A DNA stretch of 10,863 bases from a virus. The position numbers and the translations under genes were made by a program. A model generated the notes under the pieces. That model was not told where the DNA came from, searched no databases, and saw only the letters and a program-made list of their open reading frames with translations. This document shows positions 88-10,863 of the stretch, piece by piece. Location: the UHGV virus genome UHGV-0116495; one strand, written 5' to 3'. Position 1 is the stretch's first letter. Every line of letters begins with the position of its first letter.

Positions 88-1122
88 CAGACCAATTAAT
101 GCATCTCTAAAAACACAGGCCGTTATCTCATGATTATGATAAGCAACTGTTTGCTGTGACCTGTCTCCATATTCAATACACGTGCAATTTGAAGCTGAGC
201 CATCAATGTCAATATACGAAATAGATGTCTGTTTTTTCTTTCTCACATCAACAATAGGATCTGCATATCCAATAGTATGGTCATCTGCTAGCTTAAGTGT
301 AGATTTAAGATTAAAACCTGATGAAGAGTAAGCCCACGCAGATTTGATGCCTGTGAGAGCCTTGTTATCTTGCATAACTACAGGTGTCTTAATAAACAAA
401 TACCTGTCTACTAGCACCTCAACCCCATACGGACTGTTCAGAGCTTTATTTATTGGTATAGCGTTATCGGTTTCGGGACCTGGCTTAGCTCCGTAAAAAA
501 TCGCATTCAGAGGTCCATTGAAAGTCCCAGCATACAATCCATCCCTCACAACCTGACCTACCGCTCCAGTATTAATGACAATACCATCATCTGGAGCTAG
601 GTTTCGATTGCTGTAATATGTGAAACGCCCCCCAGCTAAATCGCCAGTTTCGAATCCGTATTTCGCTATAATAATTGTTCCGTCTTCAAAATCATCTCCT
701 GTTTCGGCAGCAATATCTACGTATCTGAATCCTAGTCCGCCAATAAGTGTATATCCATTTTCCCCTTCAATTAACCCCCTAAATTGATCTGGGTCATACT
801 TAATTATGTTTGGATAGTAGAACTGCTGTGTACCATACGCATCATAAACAGCCATAGAATGGCCTTGCACAGTTACGAACTTGGCAATCTGTCCGTTATA
901 TACCGGATATCCAGCAGCATTAATGATGATTGGTTGCGGAACAGGAACGTGAGAGCCGTCTTCGTTCTCCACATAAACCTGAATCTGGTTTTCAGGATTT
1001 ACCGGGTCAGTGTCAATTTTACCGATATAAATTTTGCCATTAGCTACGGCTTTAAAAGAACGCGCCATAGTGAAGAGTTGCGAAGGCATCGATACGATCA
1101 CATTGGCTGTAATGTCTGTCAT
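85..1122 (-). pseudogene. P22-like tailspike (gp9 family): conserved N-terminal head-binding domain plus part of a non-P22 receptor-binding domain, truncated at codon 345 by IS2
   Basis: N-terminus [46 protein letters not shown] closely resembles the P22/Sf6/HK620 tailspike head-binding domain. At 345 aa it is about half the length of known tailspikes. The stop codon TAG (85-87) is the first three bases of the IS2 end. RBS TGGAG lies upstream of the ATG at 1122. Confidence 0.75.
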
Positions 1123-1257
1123 TTAATTTGCTCCAGATACAAGGAATCGCCGCAGCATGGCTACGGTTGGTATTTGTTTGGTTTTTGAACTACGAAAATT
1201 TCGTAGTGCTATCCATCAAGGCCATCGCCGCTTAGTTGCTGCGGTGAATTTTGGGCA

Positions 1258-1282
1258 TAAAAAAACCCAGCCGAAGCTGGGT
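1258..1282 (-). terminator. Rho-independent terminator downstream of ant
   Basis: On the - strand: 7-bp stem ACCCAGC/GCTGGGT (1265-1271 and 1276-1282) with loop CGAA, followed by a run of seven U (complement of the A-run at 1259-1265). Confidence 0.6.
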
Positions 1283-1300
1283 CGTTGCGTTGGTTATCTG

Positions 1301-2179
1301 TCAGTAGTTATGTACTGAAGGAGGCAATTCTTTATTCTTAAGTCTCATCCATGCGGAAAGATTCGTTGGTCCGTCTGGCTCATTAATATCAACATCTCGT
1401 GTGTGGTTTATTAAAACGTCTCTCGCCATTCCGATAACATACGAGAATTCATGACCGTAGTCGTAGCATCTGCCGGAATAGTTCGATTGAATTTGTTTTA
1501 GCGCCGGATACAGTTCGCGGAATAATGCCTGTGAGCGGTTGGCATAATCCCATAACCATACAAGGCTGTTTGCTTCTTTTGCAGAAAGCTCGTTGGTTTT
1601 CTTCTCTTGTTTGCCAATGAACTCACCTTCAAGCACTACCCTGTGGATGTACTCTACGGCCAGCGGGATTTGTTCAATTGAAAGTTCATCAATGCTGTCA
1701 ATACCAAAACGCTGATGAACCATATTGTATGCATCGTCATAGCGAAGTCCTTTCTTTCCTACCAGCATGTTTACTGCATCGCGTAGCGGTGTTCTTTCCT
1801 CAACAGTGGTTTTCTTTCCTTTTACATACTCGCCATGTTTGCGAATTGAAGGCAGAACTTCTGCTGTTACCCACTTGCGGAATTTGTGCGGGACTGAACC
1901 TTTATTGACTGCATCGCGGCAGCGCAGAACCAATGTATACATACCTGATTCGCTCACAATGCTTAGATTCTGCTCACCACCAAGGGTGTAACTTAAAGTT
2001 ACTCCCTTTTCATCGTCATCAAGTGCAGTAAGCGCCTTGCGTGAGTTAGTCAAATCTAAAGCATCACAAACATCTTTAGCTACAAACCACGGCTCACCGC
2101 ACTTGTTGATGACGCGGATTTCACTGTCGCCGAATTTGAAGATGGTGAAATCGTTTTGTGCCTTTGCTATACTTTTCAT
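1301..2179 (-). CDS. ant: Antirepressor Ant (immI region), 292 aa
   Basis: Sits immediately downstream of arc on the same strand and upstream of the tailspike, as in P22 immI. Size is close to P22 Ant. AGGAAA RBS upstream of the ATG at 2179. The N-terminal region has the look of a Bro-N/AntA-type domain. Confidence 0.85.
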
Positions 2180-2247
2180 GTCAATATTTCCTAATCCGAT
2201 TTGTTGATGCCGAAGCCCTGACTGTTACAGCAGTTGGGGCTTCAACT

Positions 2248-2409
2248 TTACGCACCAATGCGCCCTTCCTTCTTAAAGCTTTCCATTACTCGCTGATAAA
2301 TCTCAGAATTAACAGACCGACCATTTTCTTCCGCCACCTTGCGTACCAAATCCAATACTTCTTTAGGCCACCGCAAATTGAACTGTGGCATTTTGCTCAT
2401 TCCTTTCAT
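2248..2409 (-). CDS. arc: Arc repressor (ribbon-helix-helix), 53 aa
   Basis: Translation MKGMSKMPQFNLRWPKEVLDLVRKVAEENGRSVNSEIYQRVMESFKKEGRIGA is essentially the P22 Arc sequence as I recall it (one R/K difference). GAGGTGA RBS 5 nt upstream of the ATG at 2409. The longer track ORF starting at 2472 begins inside the operator and is rejected. Confidence 0.9.
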   Translation of the reverse strand: MKGMSKMPQFNLRWPKEVLDLVRKVAEENGRSVNSEIYQRVMESFKKEGRIGA

Positions 2410-2425
2410 GTTCACCTCACAATAT

Positions 2426-2442
2426 AGGTCCACGGTGGACCT
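2426..2442. promoter_or_regulatory. Mnt operator (Omnt), 17-bp perfect palindrome AGGTCCACGGTGGACCT
   Basis: Exact match to the P22 Mnt operator as I recall it; lies just downstream of the Pant -10. Confidence 0.8.
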
Positions 2443-2448
2443 ATTGAG

Positions 2449-2477
2449 AATATAGTAGAGTGCTTCTATCATGTCAA
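2449..2477 (-). promoter_or_regulatory. Pant promoter (-35 TTGACA, 17-bp spacer, -10 TATATT) driving arc-ant
   Basis: On the - strand: TTGACA (complement of 2472-2477), a 17-bp spacer containing Oarc, then TATATT (complement of 2449-2454). Omnt overlaps the expected transcription start. Confidence 0.7.
2452..2472. promoter_or_regulatory. Arc operator (Oarc), 21 bp ATAGTAGAGTGCTTCTATCAT
   Basis: Matches the P22 Arc operator with TAGA/TCTA half-sites; located between the -35 and -10 of Pant. Confidence 0.8.
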
Positions 2478-2499
2478 TACACTAACTTGGAGTGATGGC

Positions 2500-2754
2500 A
2501 TGGCTAGAGATGATCCGCACTTTAACTTCCGTATGCCTTTGGAAGTAAGAGAAAAATTGAAATTAAGAGCCGAGGCTAACGGAAGGTCAATGAACTCTGA
2601 GTTATTACAAATCGTTCAGGATGCACTATCAAAACCATCACCGATTACAGGATATCGCGACGAAGCTGAACGCTTGGCTGATCAGCAGGCTGAGCAGTTC
2701 AAGGCTATAGTGTTTGAGACACTTAAAAAGATTTATGAAAAGGATTTGAAATGA
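2500..2754 (+). CDS. mnt: Mnt repressor (ribbon-helix-helix), 84 aa
   Basis: N-terminus MARDDPHFNFRMPLEVREKLKLRAEANGRSMNSELLQIVQDALSKPSP matches P22 Mnt as I recall it. GGAGTGA RBS upstream. Divergent from arc-ant across the operator region. Confidence 0.9.
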   Translation: MARDDPHFNFRMPLEVREKLKLRAEANGRSMNSELLQIVQDALSKPSPITGYRDEAERLADQQAEQFKAIVFETLKKIYEKDLK

Positions 2755-3086
2755 GATTTCTATCACTGTTCTTGTTAGCAGTTGTCTCTTCTTCCAGTGC
2801 TGAGCTGCGCGAGCTTCAAACGGGTAATGACCTTCTTTACAACATTCAACAAGGTAAAAAGGGTGATGATTTTTCATCGCTTTACATTACTGGATATTTG
2901 CGCGGAGTAACTGACTCATTGATACTAATTGGTTCTCTATGTCCTCCTGATGGCGTTGACATGTATCAATACACCGATATCGTTGAGAAATATCTAAACA
3001 AAAACCCAGAATCAAGAAATGAGAGTGCAGTTATACTAACCGCCCTAGCAGTAGGAAAAACATTTCCGTGCAAAAAGAATCAATAA
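2751..3086 (+). CDS. Small secreted protein, 111 aa: predicted Sec signal peptide, two Cys in the mature part, family unknown
   Basis: Start ATG overlaps the mnt stop (ATGA at 2751-2754), implying translational coupling. N-terminus MRFLSLFLLAVVSSSSA-ELRE looks like a cleavable signal peptide. Mature part has two Cys (LCPPDG and FPCKK). Visibly AT-richer than the flanking late genes. Confidence 0.55.
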   Translation: MRFLSLFLLAVVSSSSAELRELQTGNDLLYNIQQGKKGDDFSSLYITGYLRGVTDSLILIGSLCPPDGVDMYQYTDIVEKYLNKNPESRNESAVILTALAVGKTFPCKKNQ

Positions 3087-3101
3087 CAATAAGGGCTTAA
3101 A

Positions 3102-3491
3102 ATGAAATTGATTATAGCAATGGCTTTCCTTGTCTTCTCGTTTTCTGTCTCAGCAGAGTGCTGGGTCGTTGGAGATATGCACGGAATAAGCTATTCAGAA
3201 CGAAATAATTTTCAACCGGAAGAAGATGGTTTTAGTGGAACATTCATCATTAAGACAAACGATGAAGATGCCAGTATCACATATTCTGGGACGGATGCGG
3301 GCGGCATGGCTTACAAAGCATTGTCTAAAAACTCCATCATTGGAATCGGTGCGAATGGCGAAACTCAACGAGTTATCGACTCATGGGTAATACATCCTAA
3401 TGGAACAGTTTTAATGTCGAAAACCATTTCTGGTTATGGGAATATGGATTCAACCAAAGCTTTTGTTGGAAAAGTAAAAAGAAAATGTTAA
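3102..3491 (+). CDS. Small secreted protein, 129 aa: predicted Sec signal peptide, Cys near both ends of the mature part, family unknown
   Basis: AAGGG RBS 7 nt upstream of the ATG. N-terminus MKLIIAMAFLVFSFSVSA-ECW looks like a signal peptide without a lipobox. Gly/Ser/Thr-rich, probably mostly beta. Same strand as, and 15 bp after, the previous ORF. AT-rich. Confidence 0.55.
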   Translation: MKLIIAMAFLVFSFSVSAECWVVGDMHGISYSERNNFQPEEDGFSGTFIIKTNDEDASITYSGTDAGGMAYKALSKNSIIGIGANGETQRVIDSWVIHPNGTVLMSKTISGYGNMDSTKAFVGKVKRKC

Positions 3492-3515
3492 CGATTGAAT
3501 CCAATTCCCCATACG

Positions 3516-5357
3516 TTACTGCTGTGTTGCCTCAGTAGCAAGCAGCGGCCTGATGGCATTTGCAGCGTTACTCAACGCTCTTTCATAGGCTGGCGTTCCA
3601 GCTTTAGTGTTTGCCAGACGTAAGAGAGCATTCCTTGCTGCTTTGGACTCATACAAACGCATCATTGCACCAAAGCCAGCCTCAAGCCCCATTGATACAC
3701 CAAGAGTCGCAGTTGCGCCAATCGTCCTTATCCTGTTGGCTTGTGATTGCCCCGTCTGAGTTACTACATTTGCGGTGTCTGACCTTGCTGTTTGCTGTAG
3801 AACTTCATGAAGAGCATCAAGCTCTTTCATGTGCTTTCCAGAAAAAATAGTGTTGTAAATTTCACCGCCTGACTGAGATTTCAGCTTATTAACTTCAGTG
3901 ATGAACTTGGCTGGAGAGTCACCGGCCTTTTCCGCTATTTTGCTGACGTAAGCTGCACGCATAGCATCTTTCCCTTTATCATCCAGGGCGCTCCATATTC
4001 GTTTCACGTCAGATGGTTTTCTGCTTAATACAACGGTATTTATAAGTTCAGGACTGGCTTCACTGCTTGCCTTGTTGAGCTTGTTAGCAATGTTTTTATT
4101 AAGCACCTTATTATAAACGTTTGCATAATCGGAATTTGCTTTAAGGTATTTTGCTGCGTCTGATGCACCGAGGTTTTTAGCAACTGCGTTACGAAGGTCT
4201 TTTGACATTGCATTCTCTACCATATTGGTAGCTGCTTTTGCCTGGTTGGGGAAGACCATAGCATCTCCCTGAACATTAGATCTAAATGCTGTTCTGTGCT
4301 GACGCAAGAGATCAAACGTAACATCCAAATCAGTTGCAGGGTTTGCTAATTCTTCACGTAGGTTACGCAAGGATGTAAGCAGGCTTTGATTGGCAGACGT
4401 CCCAAGCCGTTCCTGTCTTGCGATCGCTGTATTCAGAGCATTCATGGTATTTGTGGTATCAACTGCGGCATTACCCATTTTATTGGTGACGTCATTGATA
4501 ACAGCGCCAGCGGCATCCTTCCGCCCCCTTAACGTGGTGGTAAGAGATTTCACCACATCATCAGGGTTGTACTCACCAAAACGGTCAAAATAATTACTTA
4601 CCAGCTTACTACGCGTTGCATATTGCTCCGCTCGCTTTGAGCCTGTCCCGAGCAAAGCCCCCTCGGCATCCTGAGTTAGGCCGCGAGTGAAAGCATTTTT
4701 CGGCGGGATAACATCAGATGTCATTGGTGTCACGCCCATCGATTCTGATGTGGCAATTTTCTTCGCCACTTCTGGCGCAATATCACCTTTTATAGCCGTT
4801 ATTCCACGCCCTATTCCCTTTGCTGCTGCGGAAAGAACACCCTGAGTGGCAAGGTTAACTCCGGCATTTTTAGCTGCATTTTGTGCGAAATCGCCTTTCT
4901 GATTTGCGGCCTCTGCCAGTGATCCAATAGCCATGCTTCCTGCCGTTCCAACTCCTGGAACTAAATACCCACCAATTGTTTCACCGGCTTGCGCGTAGGG
5001 GTCTGTCGGTCTGTCTACTGGACGATAAACATCATCCAAAACCTTGGGTCCACCAAGCCCCTGACTGATTGCATTAATCAGACTTGCGCCGCCCTGCAAT
5101 ACGTCAAATGGTATGTTTACCAGACCACGACCAGCCTGTTCTGCAATTTGCCCTGCACTTTGACCACCAGTGAGCCAATCGCCAGCTTGTTGGATCAATG
5201 ATGGTTCTTCCCGTGTTGGTGCATTATTGGCCTGATTAACTGTTTGTTGCTGAACAGCCTGACCAGCAAAATACTCATCAATGGCGGTGCCAATATCTTC
5301 GGTGCTCGTACCATCAGGAAAGGTAAATGTCTTACCGTTTGCAGTTACTTTCATCAT
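3516..5357 (-). CDS. gp16: P22 gp16-like ejection (injection) protein, 613 aa
   Basis: Position and size match P22 gene 16 (about 609 aa) in the 7-20-16 order. Start ATG overlaps the gp20 stop (ATGA). Ala/Gly-rich composition typical of ejection proteins. Confidence 0.85.
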
Positions 5358-6769
5358 TCCACCGTAAATTGAATGCCTGATTTTGAGGTATATGATCCAA
5401 CCTGATTCCGTGGTTCTCCTGAAGGTGTCGAATCTTGTGCTGGCGCTGCGTCAGTATTCATTGACATATACCGCTTAACGGCACTCCCCAATGATTCACC
5501 TTTTTTAACATCCAACCCCAATATCTGACCGCCATTACGCGATTGTCCAGGGTTGCCATTCGCGCTCATCCACTCGGCTTTAAACTCATTAAACTGCGCG
5601 TTTCGTCGCTCAAGGTTTGCCATTGCATCAAGCCATCTTGCGACCGTCTCAGGGTTATCCATGTCAGTTGGCGCACCCTGTCGAACGATCTCAACGTCTT
5701 TATCCGTTGCTGGGCCGGGAGGTAGGAATTTAAGAACCTGACTGTTAACAAGGGCATTTTGGCGAATGCGCAAATCACGCAATGTTGTATCGCTTCCGGT
5801 AAGTTTTGCGAACATGTTCTGTGCGTTACCGAACAAACCTGTCGTTGGTTTTTCTGCTCTGAACTGTTGAGCAAGCGCACTCATAGAATTGGCTGAGTTT
5901 GATGATGCTGTAGCATTGTTTACAGCCGTCTCGATGCCTTTTTCCATGTTTACTGACAGCTTAGGTGCTTCGCTAATCAACTGCTGAGCCTTTTCCTGCG
6001 CTTGCTGCATCTTAAACCCGAACTCTTGCTGATCCAGAGCCAAGCGTTGTGCTGCGATATTGTGCCCAGTCATTGCTGACTGATAGGAAAGGTTTTGCCC
6101 TCTCGCCTGAAGTGCTTCACCAGCCTGATTGCTGCGGATTGTCTCTGCCAGCCTGCCTCGGTCAATCTCACGACCAGCCATCTTGTCCTGAACAGCAAAC
6201 GCCTTTTCTGGCCCAAGTGCACCGAGAGACATAGTAGTCAGCATGTGTGATAGCTGCTCTGGATTCTGGATACCTGTCTGAATCATCCAGTCAGCATTCG
6301 CACCCACGCGATTTAACCTGTCCTTGTTGTCAGTAATGAATTTACTGTAGGCTTCCGGTCCCTGGGAAAGAGCGACGTTAGCCCTCATGGCTAAATCGCC
6401 CATATCGTTGCGTTGCTGCTCATTAAGACCGGAAAACGCCTGTTGTGCCTGTGCAACAAACGCTGGATTTTCCTGGGCAAACTTAAATAGTCCAGATGGA
6501 TCACCAGAAGCCCATGCATCAGCGTGAACCTTATTGAACGCACTAATAGCTTTCTGTTGCTGTTCCTGATTGTAAATATCAGCAACTCCAGCCAGACCAC
6601 GTAACGCGGTCAGACCAATGTTATTTGCACCTGAGCGAGCCAGTTCATTGTTTTCGCGGATCAGACCAAACGTTGCGTTAATGTCGCTTGCCTTTGGCGC
6701 ATTCTCATTTTGCGTACCGATGCCAGCCAGAAAACCACCAGAATTAATACCCTGTTGCCACGTAGCCAT
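5354..6769 (-). CDS. gp20: P22 gp20-like ejection protein, 471 aa
   Basis: Same length as P22 gp20 (471 aa as I recall); sits between the gp7 and gp16 homologues. AGGGGT RBS upstream. Confidence 0.85.
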
Positions 6770-6779
6770 TGATTACCCC

Positions 6780-7472
6780 TTAAAACAACGAGCCAAGCAG
6801 ACCAAGACCGCCGCCGATCGCAGCCCCCCACGGAGTTGATGAACCAATTAATTTCGCAAGTCCGGCCCCAGCAATAGCACCAGACGCACCTCCGCCAATA
6901 GCAGATTGCATTGCTGATGGTCTGTTGGCATTTGCCGCTGCAAGAGCCGCACTTTGCTGCGAAATCTGACTCATATTGTTGGCATATGTTTGCCCGGCGT
7001 TTGCCTGACCTTGCAGTGCGCCAAGACCAATATTTGCCAGATTCTGGTAGTTGTTCATCTGACCAGATAGCCATTGCTGACCAAGCGTTGGAGCGATTGT
7101 TGCTAACTGATTACCGGTTGCAGTGGAACCCAATCCACCTGTTGCTTCCGCTGCCGCCAGACTCTGATAGCGAGCCTGACCAGCAAGATCTTTGTACTGC
7201 TGAGAGTTGTAATACTGGTTAAGTGCCTGACCTTGCCCTTCCAGAGACGATAAGTTCTCGAGGCTGCCGACATACTTATCAGCCAGAGGAGTAAACGGCT
7301 TCAGGTTGTTCATGATGGTGTTGAACTGCTGATTTTGCAGGTCTGCGGCATACTTCTGGGCTTCTGCGGCATACTTTGCGCTTTTATCAGAACTGCCACC
7401 TTTCCCGCCTTTTTCAGGGCAATAAGGTTCCTCGCCACGCAGTTTTCTGCCCAGCTTAAATGCATATAACAT
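6780..7472 (-). CDS. gp7: P22 gp7-like ejection protein, 230 aa
   Basis: Length matches P22 gp7 (about 229 aa). Gly/Ala/Gln-rich with a hydrophobic Gly-rich C-terminus. GGGAG RBS upstream. Follows the gp14-position ORF with a 2-bp gap. Confidence 0.8.
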   Translation of the reverse strand: MLYAFKLGRKLRGEEPYCPEKGGKGGSSDKSAKYAAEAQKYAADLQNQQFNTIMNNLKPFTPLADKYVGSLENLSSLEGQGQALNQYYNSQQYKDLAGQARYQSLAAAEATGGLGSTATGNQLATIAPTLGQQWLSGQMNNYQNLANIGLGALQGQANAGQTYANNMSQISQQSAALAAANANRPSAMQSAIGGGASGAIAGAGLAKLIGSSTPWGAAIGGGLGLLGSLF

Positions 7473-7474
7473 GG

Positions 7475-7930
7475 CTATCTCCCGTGATTCAGGAATTCGA
7501 TTAGTTCTTCGCGTGTAGCACTGTAAAATGTCACGTCATCCACGCCTTTGAAGTATTTCTTGATGGTTCCTACACGCTTAAGTCCAATCATTGCGCAGTA
7601 CATCTGCCCGTGGCGGAATTTGCGTGCAGCGAACGATGTGACGCACTGAACGGTGGTGTTAGTCAGAATGTATCGCCAGAACGCCAGCCCGATTTCCTTG
7701 CTGAATCCGCGAATCTCTGGCAGGTACATGGCGTGGCAATCGAATGTAAGCGGCTGAATCTCCTGATAGTAAACAATGCCGCCGAACTGCCCGTGCACGT
7801 TCACCTCAAAGTAACGGCAATCAGGTTTGTAGTCGTATCCATCACCGTTGTTGCTCCCGGCAATAATGTCAGGGTGATTTCCGACTGCTTCGATCAGGTC
7901 GATGTTTCGCGTTGGTTTGAACTGAATCAT
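7475..7930 (-). CDS. gp14-position protein of the P22-like late operon, 151 aa (call is by synteny)
   Basis: Lies between the tail-needle fragment and gp7, where P22 has gene 14. Its ATG overlaps the stop of the upstream needle fragment by one base (TAATG). I do not recognise the sequence itself. Confidence 0.55.
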   Translation of the reverse strand: MIQFKPTRNIDLIEAVGNHPDIIAGSNNGDGYDYKPDCRYFEVNVHGQFGGIVYYQEIQPLTFDCHAMYLPEIRGFSKEIGLAFWRYILTNTTVQCVTSFAARKFRHGQMYCAMIGLKRVGTIKKYFKGVDDVTFYSATREELIEFLNHGR

Positions 7931-8403
7931 TACTGCTCCGCGATTATCTTGATGGTTGTGGCAGTAAACGCCGCACCATTAGACTGAATGGTTAACGTGC
8001 TGCCATTTGTGGCAAGAAAGCCGTCTTTATCCACACTGAAGAACGTAGCTAACAGGATGTTGTCGGTTGTTGTCGCCGCATTACGACTGCTGACCAACGT
8101 GTCAGGAACAGAGCCGGAAAAGGTTAGCTGCATTGACCTGTTGGTGGTTCCGCTGGGCCACGTCCCGACAATCGACAGCTTGAAGAACAAGGTTTTGTTC
8201 TCGTTGAACACAACCATCTTGTTGTTAACAGTGTCGAAGAATGGTGCCAACGTCCCGGATGACGGCGTGAGCGTTTTCAGCAGGCTAACAAGGTTGGTCG
8301 GCGCTGTCGGAATGGTTACTGATACGCCAGAGTAAACAACCTCTGACTTCTTGCGCGTGGTTGCATACTCCAGAGCATCAATGCGCGTTTCATGGTCTGA
8401 AAT
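7930..8403 (-). pseudogene. 3' fragment of the tail-needle gene (P22 gp26 family): end of the coiled coil plus C-terminal domain, about 157 codons, no start codon
   Basis: The in-frame region runs from the stop at 8404-8406 to the stop at 7930-7932. It contains ISDHETRIDALEY, resembling the DHE-containing heptad repeats of the gp26 coiled coil. There is no ATG or GTG before the TTG at 8250. The gene's 5' part, including the gp10-binding N-terminus, is absent. Stop overlaps the next gene's start as in an intact late operon. Confidence 0.6.
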
Positions 8404-8464
8404 CTATTGTTAATCTCCAATCAATGTTACGTTGTCATCTCACTCATGCTTTGGAGGTAGTGAT

Positions 8465-8644
8465 ATGTCTTGTCCAAAATGCGGTTCTGGAAATATTGCA
8501 AAAGAAAAAACAATGCGTGGATGGTCTGATGATTATGTGTGCTGCGATTGCGGATACAACGACTCTAAAGACGCATTTGGAGAGCGTGGTAAAAACGAGT
8601 TTGTCAAAATTAATAAAGAAAGCGAAGGCAACGAAAAAAGCTAA
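8465..8644 (+). CDS. Small zinc-ribbon protein, 59 aa (CPKC-x18-CCDC), with an acidic/lysine-rich C-terminal tail
   Basis: GGAGG RBS (8453-8457) 7 nt upstream of the ATG at 8465. Four Cys arranged as CxxC...CxxC. Followed by a strong terminator. AT-rich. Confidence 0.5.
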   Translation: MSCPKCGSGNIAKEKTMRGWSDDYVCCDCGYNDSKDAFGERGKNEFVKINKESEGNEKS

Positions 8645-8707
8645 TTTATTTATTCATATATGAAAACAATGTAACCAATATTCGAATTGAAGAACTGAAA
8701 GAACACC

Positions 8708-8731
8708 AAGCCGCCTGATGGCGGTTTTTTA
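8708..8731 (+). terminator. Rho-independent terminator after the zinc-ribbon ORF
   Basis: Stem AAGCCGCC/GGCGGTTT (8 bp including one G-U pair), loop TGAT, followed by TTTTTT. Confidence 0.65.
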
Positions 8732-8744
8732 TTGGAGACAAGAA

Positions 8745-9089
8745 ATGTCAGATTTGGCTATGAAGGTTTTGAAATGGCAATCGACTGGCGATGTCGGCAT
8801 CAGTAGCGCAACTCTTGCCTCAATCGCATGTGGACTGAAAAAGAATATCTATGGTCATCACTTCGGCGCTCCACATGACGCAGCAGATTTCCGACGATGC
8901 GTTGCACTTGTTGAGCAGATTCCAGAAATCAGAGATTCATTCGACAAGGTTGCAAAGCGCGTTCCGGCATTCAAAGGAATCCTCAACGAATGGGATTCAC
9001 TCGTTGCTCTGTTGAAGTCTGAAATGAAGGCGTACGGGAACAAAGCACCAGAGACTTACAGAAGAATCAGCGAGCTACGCAAGGACTAA
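8745..9089 (+). CDS. Hypothetical cytoplasmic protein, 114 aa, family unknown
   Basis: GGAGA RBS (8734-8738) about 6 nt upstream of the ATG at 8745. The track's earlier ATG at 8718 lies inside the upstream terminator loop and is rejected. No signal peptide or transmembrane segment is evident. Confidence 0.5.
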   Translation: MSDLAMKVLKWQSTGDVGISSATLASIACGLKKNIYGHHFGAPHDAADFRRCVALVEQIPEIRDSFDKVAKRVPAFKGILNEWDSLVALLKSEMKAYGNKAPETYRRISELRKD

Positions 9090-9125
9090 CGCCTCACACT
9101 CGATGAGGCCTGTACATATCTGATA

Positions 9126-9150
9126 GAGCCGCTATATGGCGGTTTCTTTT
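9126..9150 (+). terminator. Terminator-like hairpin plus U-tract between the 114-aa ORF and the alpA-like gene
   Basis: Stem GAGCCGC/GCGGTTT (with G-U pairs), loop TATATG, followed by CTTTTT. An upstream hairpin GCCTCA-N7-TGAGGC lies at 9091-9109. Confidence 0.45.
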
Positions 9151-9166
9151 TGCCTGGAGAATTAAG

Positions 9167-9358
9167 ATGACCGATACCAGCCTGATTCCTGAGAAAGAAG
9201 TGATGAACAAGCTCGGTGTTTCATCACGTCAGACAATCTGGAACTATACCAAACGGCACGGATTTCCGAAGCCAGTCAGAACCCACCCCAAATCATACCT
9301 TCGTGAAGCTGTTGAAGGGTGGATTCTTAACGGTGGCGTTAATCAGAAATGCTCCTGA
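9167..9358 (+). CDS. AlpA-family DNA-binding protein (prophage excisionase/transcriptional regulator), 63 aa
   Basis: LIPEKEVMNKLGVSSRQTIWNYTKRHGFPKPVR...EAVEGWI fits the AlpA/Xis-like winged-helix pattern (L-P-E-V...G-S-R-T-I...G-FPKP...W). GGAGA RBS upstream. Adjacent to the integrase. Confidence 0.75.
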   Translation: MTDTSLIPEKEVMNKLGVSSRQTIWNYTKRHGFPKPVRTHPKSYLREAVEGWILNGGVNQKCS

Positions 9359-10517
9359 TGTGCCAGAACAATTTATCAGCGTGAAGCTCATACGCTTTGC
9401 GCTGAGCCTCTATCCAGTCGTGTTTATTGTACACGGACATTATCCCGCCAAGTTCATGACCGAGCATTCGCTCAGTAACATGAGGCTCGACATTCATCTC
9501 GGACAGACGTGTAACAAGCGTTCTTCTGAAATCGTGTGTTCGCCAGTAACCTAGATCCATCCCTCCCCTTATTCTATTTACGAATCGGTTGGCTGCAGCG
9601 ATGCTGATCGGTTTGTTTATGTCTTCTCCAGGGAAAAGAACATCATTGTACGTTGTCATGGCCTTTTCGAGGAAAGGCTTAATTTGTTCGAAGATTGGAC
9701 GGCGGATAACATTACCCATCTTGCTATGCTCTTTCGGTACGGTCCATACGTTTTCCAGCAGATCAAATTCTGTCTTTTTTGCCAGCCTAAGCTCTGAGAG
9801 CCTCGCCCCCCACAGCATAAGCATCTGATGAAGTAGCTTATTTGACGTAGACGCACGGCTTCTTTCAATAGCAAGCCAAATCTTAGCCAGTTCGTGATAC
9901 GACAGTACCCGATCCCCTACCTCAGCGCGGGAGCCGAAGTCCCTTGGTTGGATGCTCATAATTGCGCAACTATCTATCAACTGACGCCGCATGCACCAAC
10001 TTATTGCTGATCTTAGTTGACTTAGCACCTGCCTTGCTCGGCGTGGATTATCTCTTTCTTCTTCGGTAAGCAGGTCAACCCATTGCTTAACCGTGATAGA
10101 AGATGCCGGACGATTAGGAAAGGCGTCATGCATGCGCTTCATAACCGTTGATCGGTAAAGTGCCTGGGTCTTTTCTCTGAGAGTTGTAGAGACGTAGTTG
10201 TCGAACCAGTAGTCGAGACACTGGGCGACCGTCATGGAGTTCTCCACCTTCTCTTCAAAATAGGTGCGTGGATCCGTTCCTGAGAAATAGAGCTTTCGCA
10301 AGTCAGCAGTGATCTGTCTGGCATCCTTCAAAGACAGGGATGGGTATCGACCAAGCCCAAGTCGATTAGGCTTGCCATGCCAGCGATAGCGGTACTGGAA
10401 CTGGATGACCCCCTTCGGTGAAATTCGTACGCTGAGGCCATCGGCATCAGCCACTTCTTGTGGGCCCGAATATGGTTTACCATAAATAGTACGCAGTTTT
10501 GTGTCGCTTATAGCCAT
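9339..10517 (-). CDS. int: Tyrosine site-specific integrase, P4-type (N-terminal arm-binding domain plus catalytic domain), 392 aa
   Basis: The N-terminus (DGLSVRISPKGVIQFQYRYRWHGKPNRLGLGRYPSLSLKDAR) is typical of the P4-like integrase arm-binding domain. The C-terminus has the catalytic motifs ARLSELR, HDFRRT, LGHELGG and SVYNKHDW (Tyr). It is the last prophage gene before sbcB. Confidence 0.9.
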   Translation of the reverse strand: MAISDTKLRTIYGKPYSGPQEVADADGLSVRISPKGVIQFQYRYRWHGKPNRLGLGRYPSLSLKDARQITADLRKLYFSGTDPRTYFEEKVENSMTVAQCLDYWFDNYVSTTLREKTQALYRSTVMKRMHDAFPNRPASSITVKQWVDLLTEEERDNPRRARQVLSQLRSAISWCMRRQLIDSCAIMSIQPRDFGSRAEVGDRVLSYHELAKIWLAIERSRASTSNKLLHQMLMLWGARLSELRLAKKTEFDLLENVWTVPKEHSKMGNVIRRPIFEQIKPFLEKAMTTYNDVLFPGEDINKPISIAAANRFVNRIRGGMDLGYWRTHDFRRTLVTRLSEMNVEPHVTERMLGHELGGIMSVYNKHDWIEAQRKAYELHADKLFWHIRSISD

Positions 10518-10525
10518 AAATAATA

Positions 10526-10569
10526 TTTGGTACGCTCAAAAATAATGGTTTGGTACACATCTGGTACAC
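10526..10569. repeat. Three direct repeats of TGGTAC(A/G)C upstream of int
   Basis: TTTGGTACGC (10526-10535), TTTGGTACAC (10549-10558) and CTGGTACAC (10561-10569), in an AT-rich junction between int and sbcB. Candidate arm-type or regulatory sites. Confidence 0.5.
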
Positions 10570-10698
10570 AATATCACATGGACAACAGCGCACAGTAAAC
10601 AACTATATTTGACGTTCGTAGACATACTCAGGTGAAAAAATGGTTGTTTTTCGAGTTATAACAGACAGTTAATTAACTACAGTGGACAATGCTAGACA

Positions 10699-10863
10699 AT
10701 GACAGACACAGATAAACAACCTACCTTCCTCTTTCACGATTACGAAACCTTTGGCACGCACCCCGCGTTAGATCGCCCTGCACAGTTCGCAGCCATTCGC
10801 ACCGATAGCGAATTCAATGTCATCGGCGAACCCGAAGTCTTTTACTGCAAGCCCGCGGATGAC
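10699..10863 (+). CDS. sbcB: Exodeoxyribonuclease I (SbcB), N-terminal 55 codons; the gene continues past the window end
   Basis: Translation MTDTDKQPTFLFHDYETFGTHPALDRPAQFAAIRTDSEFNVIGEPEVFYCKPADD matches enterobacterial exonuclease I. The open frame runs to the window edge. Confidence 0.85.
   Translation, partial: MTDTDKQPTFLFHDYETFGTHPALDRPAQFAAIRTDSEFNVIGEPEVFYCKPADD

Follow-up and report, generated by a model that had tools for sequence, protein, structure and literature searches.

Temperate phages that carry the ‘type 2851’ integration module insert into the 5′ end of the Escherichia coli exonuclease I gene sbcB. The paper on Sf101 gives the attP core of Sf101 and 2851 as the 13-bp sequence 5′-CGTAATCGTGAAA-3′ (PMC4159516). 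GenBank phage records bear the feature ‘attP; prophage attachment site (type 2851)’, and the record of phage 1717 (FJ188381) annotates exactly this 13-mer as a repeat_region labeled ‘duplication due to insertion of stx2c phage’. The att of sbcB prophages is 13 bp long in PMC4159516 and FJ188381 but 12 bp in one preprint, which has already described degraded non-Stx prophages at this site (bioRxiv 10.1101/2024.03.06.583675). In O157, sbcB is among the four routinely typed insertion sites of Stx phages (PMC8309913, PMC3519850); typing of this site is also routine in other STEC. An initial annotation of the DNA studied here had named sbcB as a known site for lambdoid phages including Stx-converting ones, in agreement with the GenBank features and with PMC4159516, PMC8309913 and PMC3519850.

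We analyzed the complete 10,863-nt stretch of the UHGV virus genome UHGV-0116495, referred to as the window, at the right end of which a phage integrase gene lies next to a truncated sbcB with an unusual start. We interpret positions 10518–10863 as the P-O-B′ junction of a temperate phage with a ‘2851-type’ integrase, integrated in an attB within the 5′ end of E. coli sbcB, and assign this reading a probability of about 95%. As such, the junction is a standard instance of the published attachment site and already known.

A phage-borne start of sbcB

The sbcB open reading frame (ORF) of the window opens with an ATG at 10699 and reads MTDTDKQPTFLFHDYETFG at its start. The translation from this ATG begins MTDTDKQPTFLFHDYETFGTHPALDRPAQ, the whole part inside the window is MTDTDKQPTFLFHDYETFGTHPALDRPAQFAAIRTDSEFNVIGEPEVFYCKPADD, and the ORF runs off the right end. 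For comparison, three unoccupied E. coli loci were fetched. In all three, dacD is directly followed by sbcB, and the two that were translated, ECONIH2 and NEBExpress, encode an sbcB start of MMNDGKQQSTFLFHDYETFG. The start in the window thus differs from that of K-12 just as stated in the initial annotation. Its expectation of agreement from TFLFHDYETFG onward was likewise borne out: from T9/T10 on, the proteins agree, and the remaining 47 residues are all those of ECONIH2. The 55 residues encoded in the window also match exonuclease I chains in the PDB (E = 6e-30); for the solved chain 4jrp_A, residues 1–55 align and are identical from TFLF on. With eight residues in place of nine, the hybrid SbcB is one residue shorter.

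At the DNA level, the foreign portion reaches further than the protein difference. The window reads ATG ACA GAC ACA GAT AAA CAA CCT ACC TTC CTC followed by TTT CAC GAT TAC G, and the empty site reads ATG ATG AAT GAC GGT AAG CAA CAA TCT ACC TTT TTG followed by the same TTT CAC GAT TAC G. Two synonymous changes, TTC CTC versus native TTT TTG, extend the foreign DNA through codon 11, and the last mismatch between window and empty site falls at 10731. The earlier description of a changed first eight codons therefore holds for the protein but undercounts the DNA, in which 11 codons are of phage origin. This substitute 5′ end (10699–10731, plus strand) comprises the ATG and ten further codons (MTDTDKQPTFL) in frame with the host gene. 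It was directly observed to be phage-borne, being found in the free phage genomes HK140 and 1717, which both cover 100% of the query 9339–10744, and missing from empty sites. In phage 1717, the lone difference among the substitute codons is synonymous, AAA to AAG, and AAG is also the lysine codon of the host. Compared to native codons 2–12, the substitute 33 nt are 64% identical in an ungapped, in-frame alignment (binomial p about 1e-5); given this identity, the phage-borne fragment appears to be a diverged copy of an sbcB start and not an arbitrary stretch. Host-derived sbcB (the B′ side; 10745–10863, plus strand) continues to the window end and is 95–99% identical to sbcB in 5,423 of 5,426 E. 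coli genomes.

The att core and its reciprocal junctions

To locate the crossover region, we aligned four sequences: the window, the free phage HK140 (attP), the dacD-side junction of E. coli strain 2-1 and the empty site of ECONIH2 (attB). The sole stretch identical in attP, attB and both prophage junctions was the 13-mer TTTCACGATTACG at 10732–10744 (plus strand). Derived here independently, it is the reverse complement of the published 5′-CGTAATCGTGAAA-3′, a match that is exact over the 13 bp. Left of the 13-mer, the window is near-identical to HK140 and the dacD-side junction to the empty site; right of it, the pairs swap, with the window joining the empty site and HK140 joining the dacD-side junction. 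This arrangement of P-O-B′, P-O-P′, B-O-P′ and B-O-B′, read directly from the alignment, is the textbook pattern of conservative site-specific recombination. It agrees, together with the published core, with the proposal in the initial annotation that the prophage junction lies inside the start of sbcB and that attP carries a replacement 5′ end. The proposed comparison with prophage-free loci gave identity beginning at 10715, a last mismatch at 10731 and the core at 10732–10744. A core within roughly the first 30 bp of sbcB had been anticipated; the location at the 5′ end stands, while the exact position is shifted to nt 34–46 of the hybrid ORF. There, the core encodes F-H-D-Y-(E) and overlaps the DxE active-site motif of exonuclease I. 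The exact prophage boundary is thereby fixed at 10732–10744, which is of practical value only.

The second junction lies outside the window and was read in strain 2-1, a relative without the insertion sequence (IS) found at the left end of the window. In this strain, a 14.8-kb element separates dacD from sbcB, with a PGAP context of dacD, prophage, int and sbcB. A repeat finder returned one direct repeat of 30 nt with 87% identity flanking the element (5515–5544 and 20316–20345 of the strain 2-1 locus, L004), of which the copy at 20316–20345 corresponds to window positions 10715–10744. The last 13 nt of this repeat, termed D3, are exact and constitute TTTCACGATTACG (L004 5532–5544 and 20333–20345); the 17 nt beyond the exact core are imperfect, with 13 of 17 identical (window 10715–10731 versus L004 5515–5531). 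The matching repeat that the initial annotation had proposed to look for at the other prophage end is present in strain 2-1, at the dacD side, as an exact 13-bp core. At the dacD side, the native sbcB promoter region is followed by ATGATGAATGACGGTAAGCAACAATCTACCTTTTTGTTTCACGATTACG, then CGCAATACCCCTGAG and onward, so that in strain 2-1 each prophage end has a copy of the core, flanked by reciprocal P and B arms.

Both displaced and phage-borne starts are short when read outside an sbcB context. The native sbcB 5′ end at the dacD-side junction (L004 5497–5559) reads into P′ DNA and stops after 19–20 codons (...FHDYAQYP*), as does the substitute 5′ end in the attP of free phage HK140 (L005), again after 19–20 codons (...FHDYAQYP*). 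From its new place at the far junction, the native sbcB promoter faces the prophage, in the direction of the gtr genes.

Integrase, P arm and arm-type repeats

An intact gene for a tyrosine integrase of the ‘2851 type’ occupies 9339–10517 on the minus strand. The 392-aa product contains the Pfam domains Arm-DNA-bind_3 (PF13356) and Phage_integrase (PF00589) and shares 391 of 392 residues with Int of the viable phage HK140. HDFRR, GH and VY motifs are visible in its C-terminal part and were assigned by eye as the R..HxxR..H..Y catalytic residues. The region comprising int, P arm and core (9339–10744) was recovered with 100% coverage and 98.4–99.6% nucleotide identity in HK140, mEp234, HK544, Sf101 (98.7%), 2851 (98.4%) and 1717, and over the same identity range in numerous Stx1a-, Stx2a- and Stx2c-converting phages.

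Located upstream of sbcB, int is divergent from it and 181 bp away. This intergenic region (10518–10698) forms the P arm of attP and is near-identical in HK140. It contains three direct copies of TGGTACRC at 10528, 10551 and 10562; the whole window holds five copies of this motif, three of them in the P arm, against 0.36 expected. Two further copies in the same orientation are present in the P′ arm at the far junction (L004 5601 and 5613). The layout is as expected of arm-type sites, and the repeats are putative arm-binding sites of Int.

On the other side of int, a gene on the plus strand (9167–9358) encodes a 63-aa AlpA-family helix-turn-helix protein. It is annotated as an AlpA regulatory protein in the RefSeq records of HK140, Sf101 and mEp234 and as a helix-turn-helix regulator in the strain 2-1 locus; no Pfam match was obtained for it at E ≤ 0.001. 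The gene is likely an excision or regulatory partner of int. The two genes, int on the minus and the AlpA-like gene on the plus strand, converge with their 3′ ends overlapping by 20 nt (9339–9358).

Distribution among E. coli genomes

A megablast search of window 10400–10863 against 5,426 complete E. coli genomes returned an sbcB match in 5,423. Only 582 of the 5,426 covered at least 80% of the query; the other matches begin at query position 316, equivalent to window position 10715 inside the annotated sbcB, and no empty-site match among these genomes reaches upstream of that position. Sequence left of 10715 thus occurs in just 582 genomes, and the difference at the sbcB start is not chance variation. 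By this count, the junction is occupied in about 11% of complete E. coli genomes. A query restricted to the P arm and one combining int with the junction each retrieved 582 genomes, giving, at the level of these equal counts, no sign among the 5,426 of a variant start without the element. These data explain a variant SbcB N-terminus that annotation pipelines and variant callers will encounter in about every ninth E. coli genome.

A degraded P22-like prophage body

The remainder of the window is a defective P22-like prophage body (88–9338) with the 5′ part of a tailspike gene, ant, arc, mnt, genes for ejection proteins, a truncated needle-knob gene and ea-type genes. These assignments are based on the PGAP annotation of the near-identical strain 2-1 region and on Pfam matches to Head_binding and Phage_tail_NK. 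The P22-like phages N7, CUS-3 and Emek match 88–9338 only piecewise, with a coverage of 45% at most. In strain 2-1, the element comprises, in order, gtrA/B/C-type glucosylation genes, a tailspike gene with a P22-type head-binding domain, ant, arc and mnt, followed by three to four ejection-protein genes, a needle-knob gene lacking its 5′ part, eag, a hypothetical gene, the gene for the AlpA-like helix-turn-helix protein and the tyrosine integrase gene. The Sf6-type needle-knob ORF spans positions 70–175 of the 175 in the Pfam profile and directly abuts eag/ea-type genes, with the joint at 7930–8465. Because this truncated ORF adjoins the ea-type genes, a single internal deletion is the explanation for the loss of the early, replication, lysis and head genes.

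Positions 1–87 constitute an IS end with 21,673 occurrences in E. coli genomes, which we take to be the left end of IS2 in reverse complement. The tailspike gene is broken off by this IS at the left end of the window, so that the far junction lies outside; placing the other prophage end beyond IS2, as in the initial annotation, is consistent with this arrangement. No complete E. coli genome contains an IS at this tailspike spot, and the best matches there cover just 88–3500. Within the immI region, beside mnt, PGAP identifies a gene for a Rap1a/Tai family immunity protein (2751–3086), a family associated with type VI effector immunity. An unannotated ORF of 105–129 aa follows it (3102–3491).

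The hybrid sbcB and alternative readings

On the basis of these data, we propose that strand exchange took place within the 13-bp core, at the codons for F-H-D-Y-E. Integration then moved the native promoter, the start codon and the first 12 codons to the far junction beside dacD, a distance of ~14.8 kb in strain 2-1, with the P arm substituting its own ATG and ten codons from a diverged in-frame sbcB copy. In the source genome of the window, the far junction past the IS would be expected to read ...ATGATGAATGACGGTAAGCAACAATCTACCTTTTTG-TTTCACGATTACG-CGCAATACCCC... Because the phage copy is in frame, sbcB stays open and intact. In strain 2-1, the hybrid ORF was directly observed to be intact at 474 aa, compared to 475 aa for the native protein, and PGAP names the gene exodeoxyribonuclease I rather than a pseudogene. 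The FHDYETFG segment with the catalytic HDYE motif (the D-x-E of Exo I) is kept in the hybrid. We take D15 and E17 to be the catalytic carboxylates of this motif, following the structural literature on ExoI; that the core encodes F-H-D-Y-E with these two residues would explain why attB is well conserved. The hybrid exonuclease I is predicted to be active.

The P arm presumably contains the int promoter as well as the promoter now driving sbcB, so that sbcB transcription would start in the 181-bp int–sbcB spacer. A consensus scan found no sigma-70 consensus site in the P arm between int and the ATG. A relaxed scan of the P arm yielded weak candidates only, TGGACA-19-TATATT ending at 10609 and an extended −10-like TGaAAAAAT ending at 10641. 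The same simple scan, applied upstream of native sbcB, revealed no strong promoter either, which makes it uninformative here. Nor is an obvious Shine–Dalgarno sequence apparent before the ATG at 10699. The earlier suggestion that promoter and N-terminus now come from the element was thus substantiated for the N-terminus through the free phages, while a promoter of phage origin is a prediction, no consensus sigma-70 site having been found in the P arm. More speculatively, a prophage-supplied promoter situated among the putative Int arm sites, by the divergent int promoter, might set or modulate ExoI levels in the roughly 11% of E. coli genomes with this junction, many Stx2c lysogens among them. 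We consider this improbable; if true, it would amount to lysogenic conversion of a recombination and repair nuclease and could favor phage recombination or prophage stability.

Several other readings of the locus were weighed. The start could be the native sbcB allele of the strain or of another species, placed beside an integrase by coincidence, and the resemblance of the substitute codons to sbcB, at 64% in frame, is what a diverged allele would show. Yet the same codons and upstream DNA sit beside phage P′ DNA in free phages, and all examined unoccupied E. coli loci start MMNDGKQQS, with similarity to the window only from 10715. A degenerate pattern back-translated from the first 17 residues, MTDTDKQPTFLFHDYET, had a single match in 185,579 species-representative genomes, and this genome is an E. 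coli with the same int–sbcB junction and an occupied site. We accordingly give a native allele next to no probability and reject the other-species alternative raised in the initial annotation. Another species as the source of sbcB was also dismissed on the DNA itself: downstream of the core it is E. coli sbcB, and 10400–10863 is 100% identical to strain 2-1 (NZ_CP097198), the closest complete genome. A different concern is that the junction may belong to a phage-inducible chromosomal island (PICI) or a P4-like satellite with int and alpA, and not to a true prophage. Gram-negative PICIs, too, typically have an AlpA-family gene beside the integrase gene as their hallmark, and the element is short, at about 14.8 kb in strain 2-1. 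What it carries, however, are virion and immI genes of the P22-like type (for tailspike, ejection proteins and needle knob, plus ant, arc and mnt), one of which is cut short at the internal deletion joint, and the same int–attP module is found in complete viable phages. A PICI or satellite is hence highly improbable and was rejected on gene content.

The third alternative accepts the junction as real and concerns its consequence. With the native promoter carried away, sbcB could be silenced or strongly downregulated in lysogens, leaving the substitute codons as a functionless relic. The weak promoter candidates between int and the ATG and the missing Shine–Dalgarno sequence would fit this scenario, but the region upstream of native sbcB also lacks a strong promoter in the same scan. 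Moreover, the in-frame ATG and ten codons are kept across the inspected phages, with the one difference in 1717 being synonymous, and the hybrid ORF has stayed intact in strain 2-1. The kept in-frame start and the intact ORF argue, short of proof, for selection that keeps sbcB functional. We regard silencing as unlikely, while giving it some weight, and prefer the reading of a P-O-B′ junction at which a phage-borne 5′ end maintains the gene.

Comparison with related systems

The locus is closest to the ‘type 2851’ module of phages 2851 and Sf101, also present in 1717, HK140, HK544 and mEp234, which has the same 13-bp core and the same target at the sbcB 5′ end. No stx genes were detected in the window, as opposed to Stx phages of type 2851, and oacB was seen neither in the window nor in the matching element of strain 2-1. 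The junction itself is no different from that of type-2851 phages; what sets the locus apart is the prophage body, the degraded remains of a P22-like prophage that has undergone an internal deletion and been hit by an IS.

Beyond this group, the components resemble those of lambda Int and attP, in which a tyrosine recombinase with an N-terminal arm-binding domain is likewise combined with a short core between repeated arm-type motifs, the motifs being putative in the present case. The lambda int gene runs towards attP. Compared to lambda and P22, int is here read away from the core, out of the P arm and towards the AlpA-like gene. Finally, the attP of phage 21 and of e14, which insert at the icd 3′ end, includes a substitute for that end, so that the displaced part of the gene is likewise replaced in frame by a diverged phage copy and the host gene remains intact; for this, a few C-terminal codons and a stop suffice. 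In contrast to these elements, it is the 5′ end that is replaced at sbcB, and the integrating element must therefore supply the start codon, the translation signals and the promoter as well.
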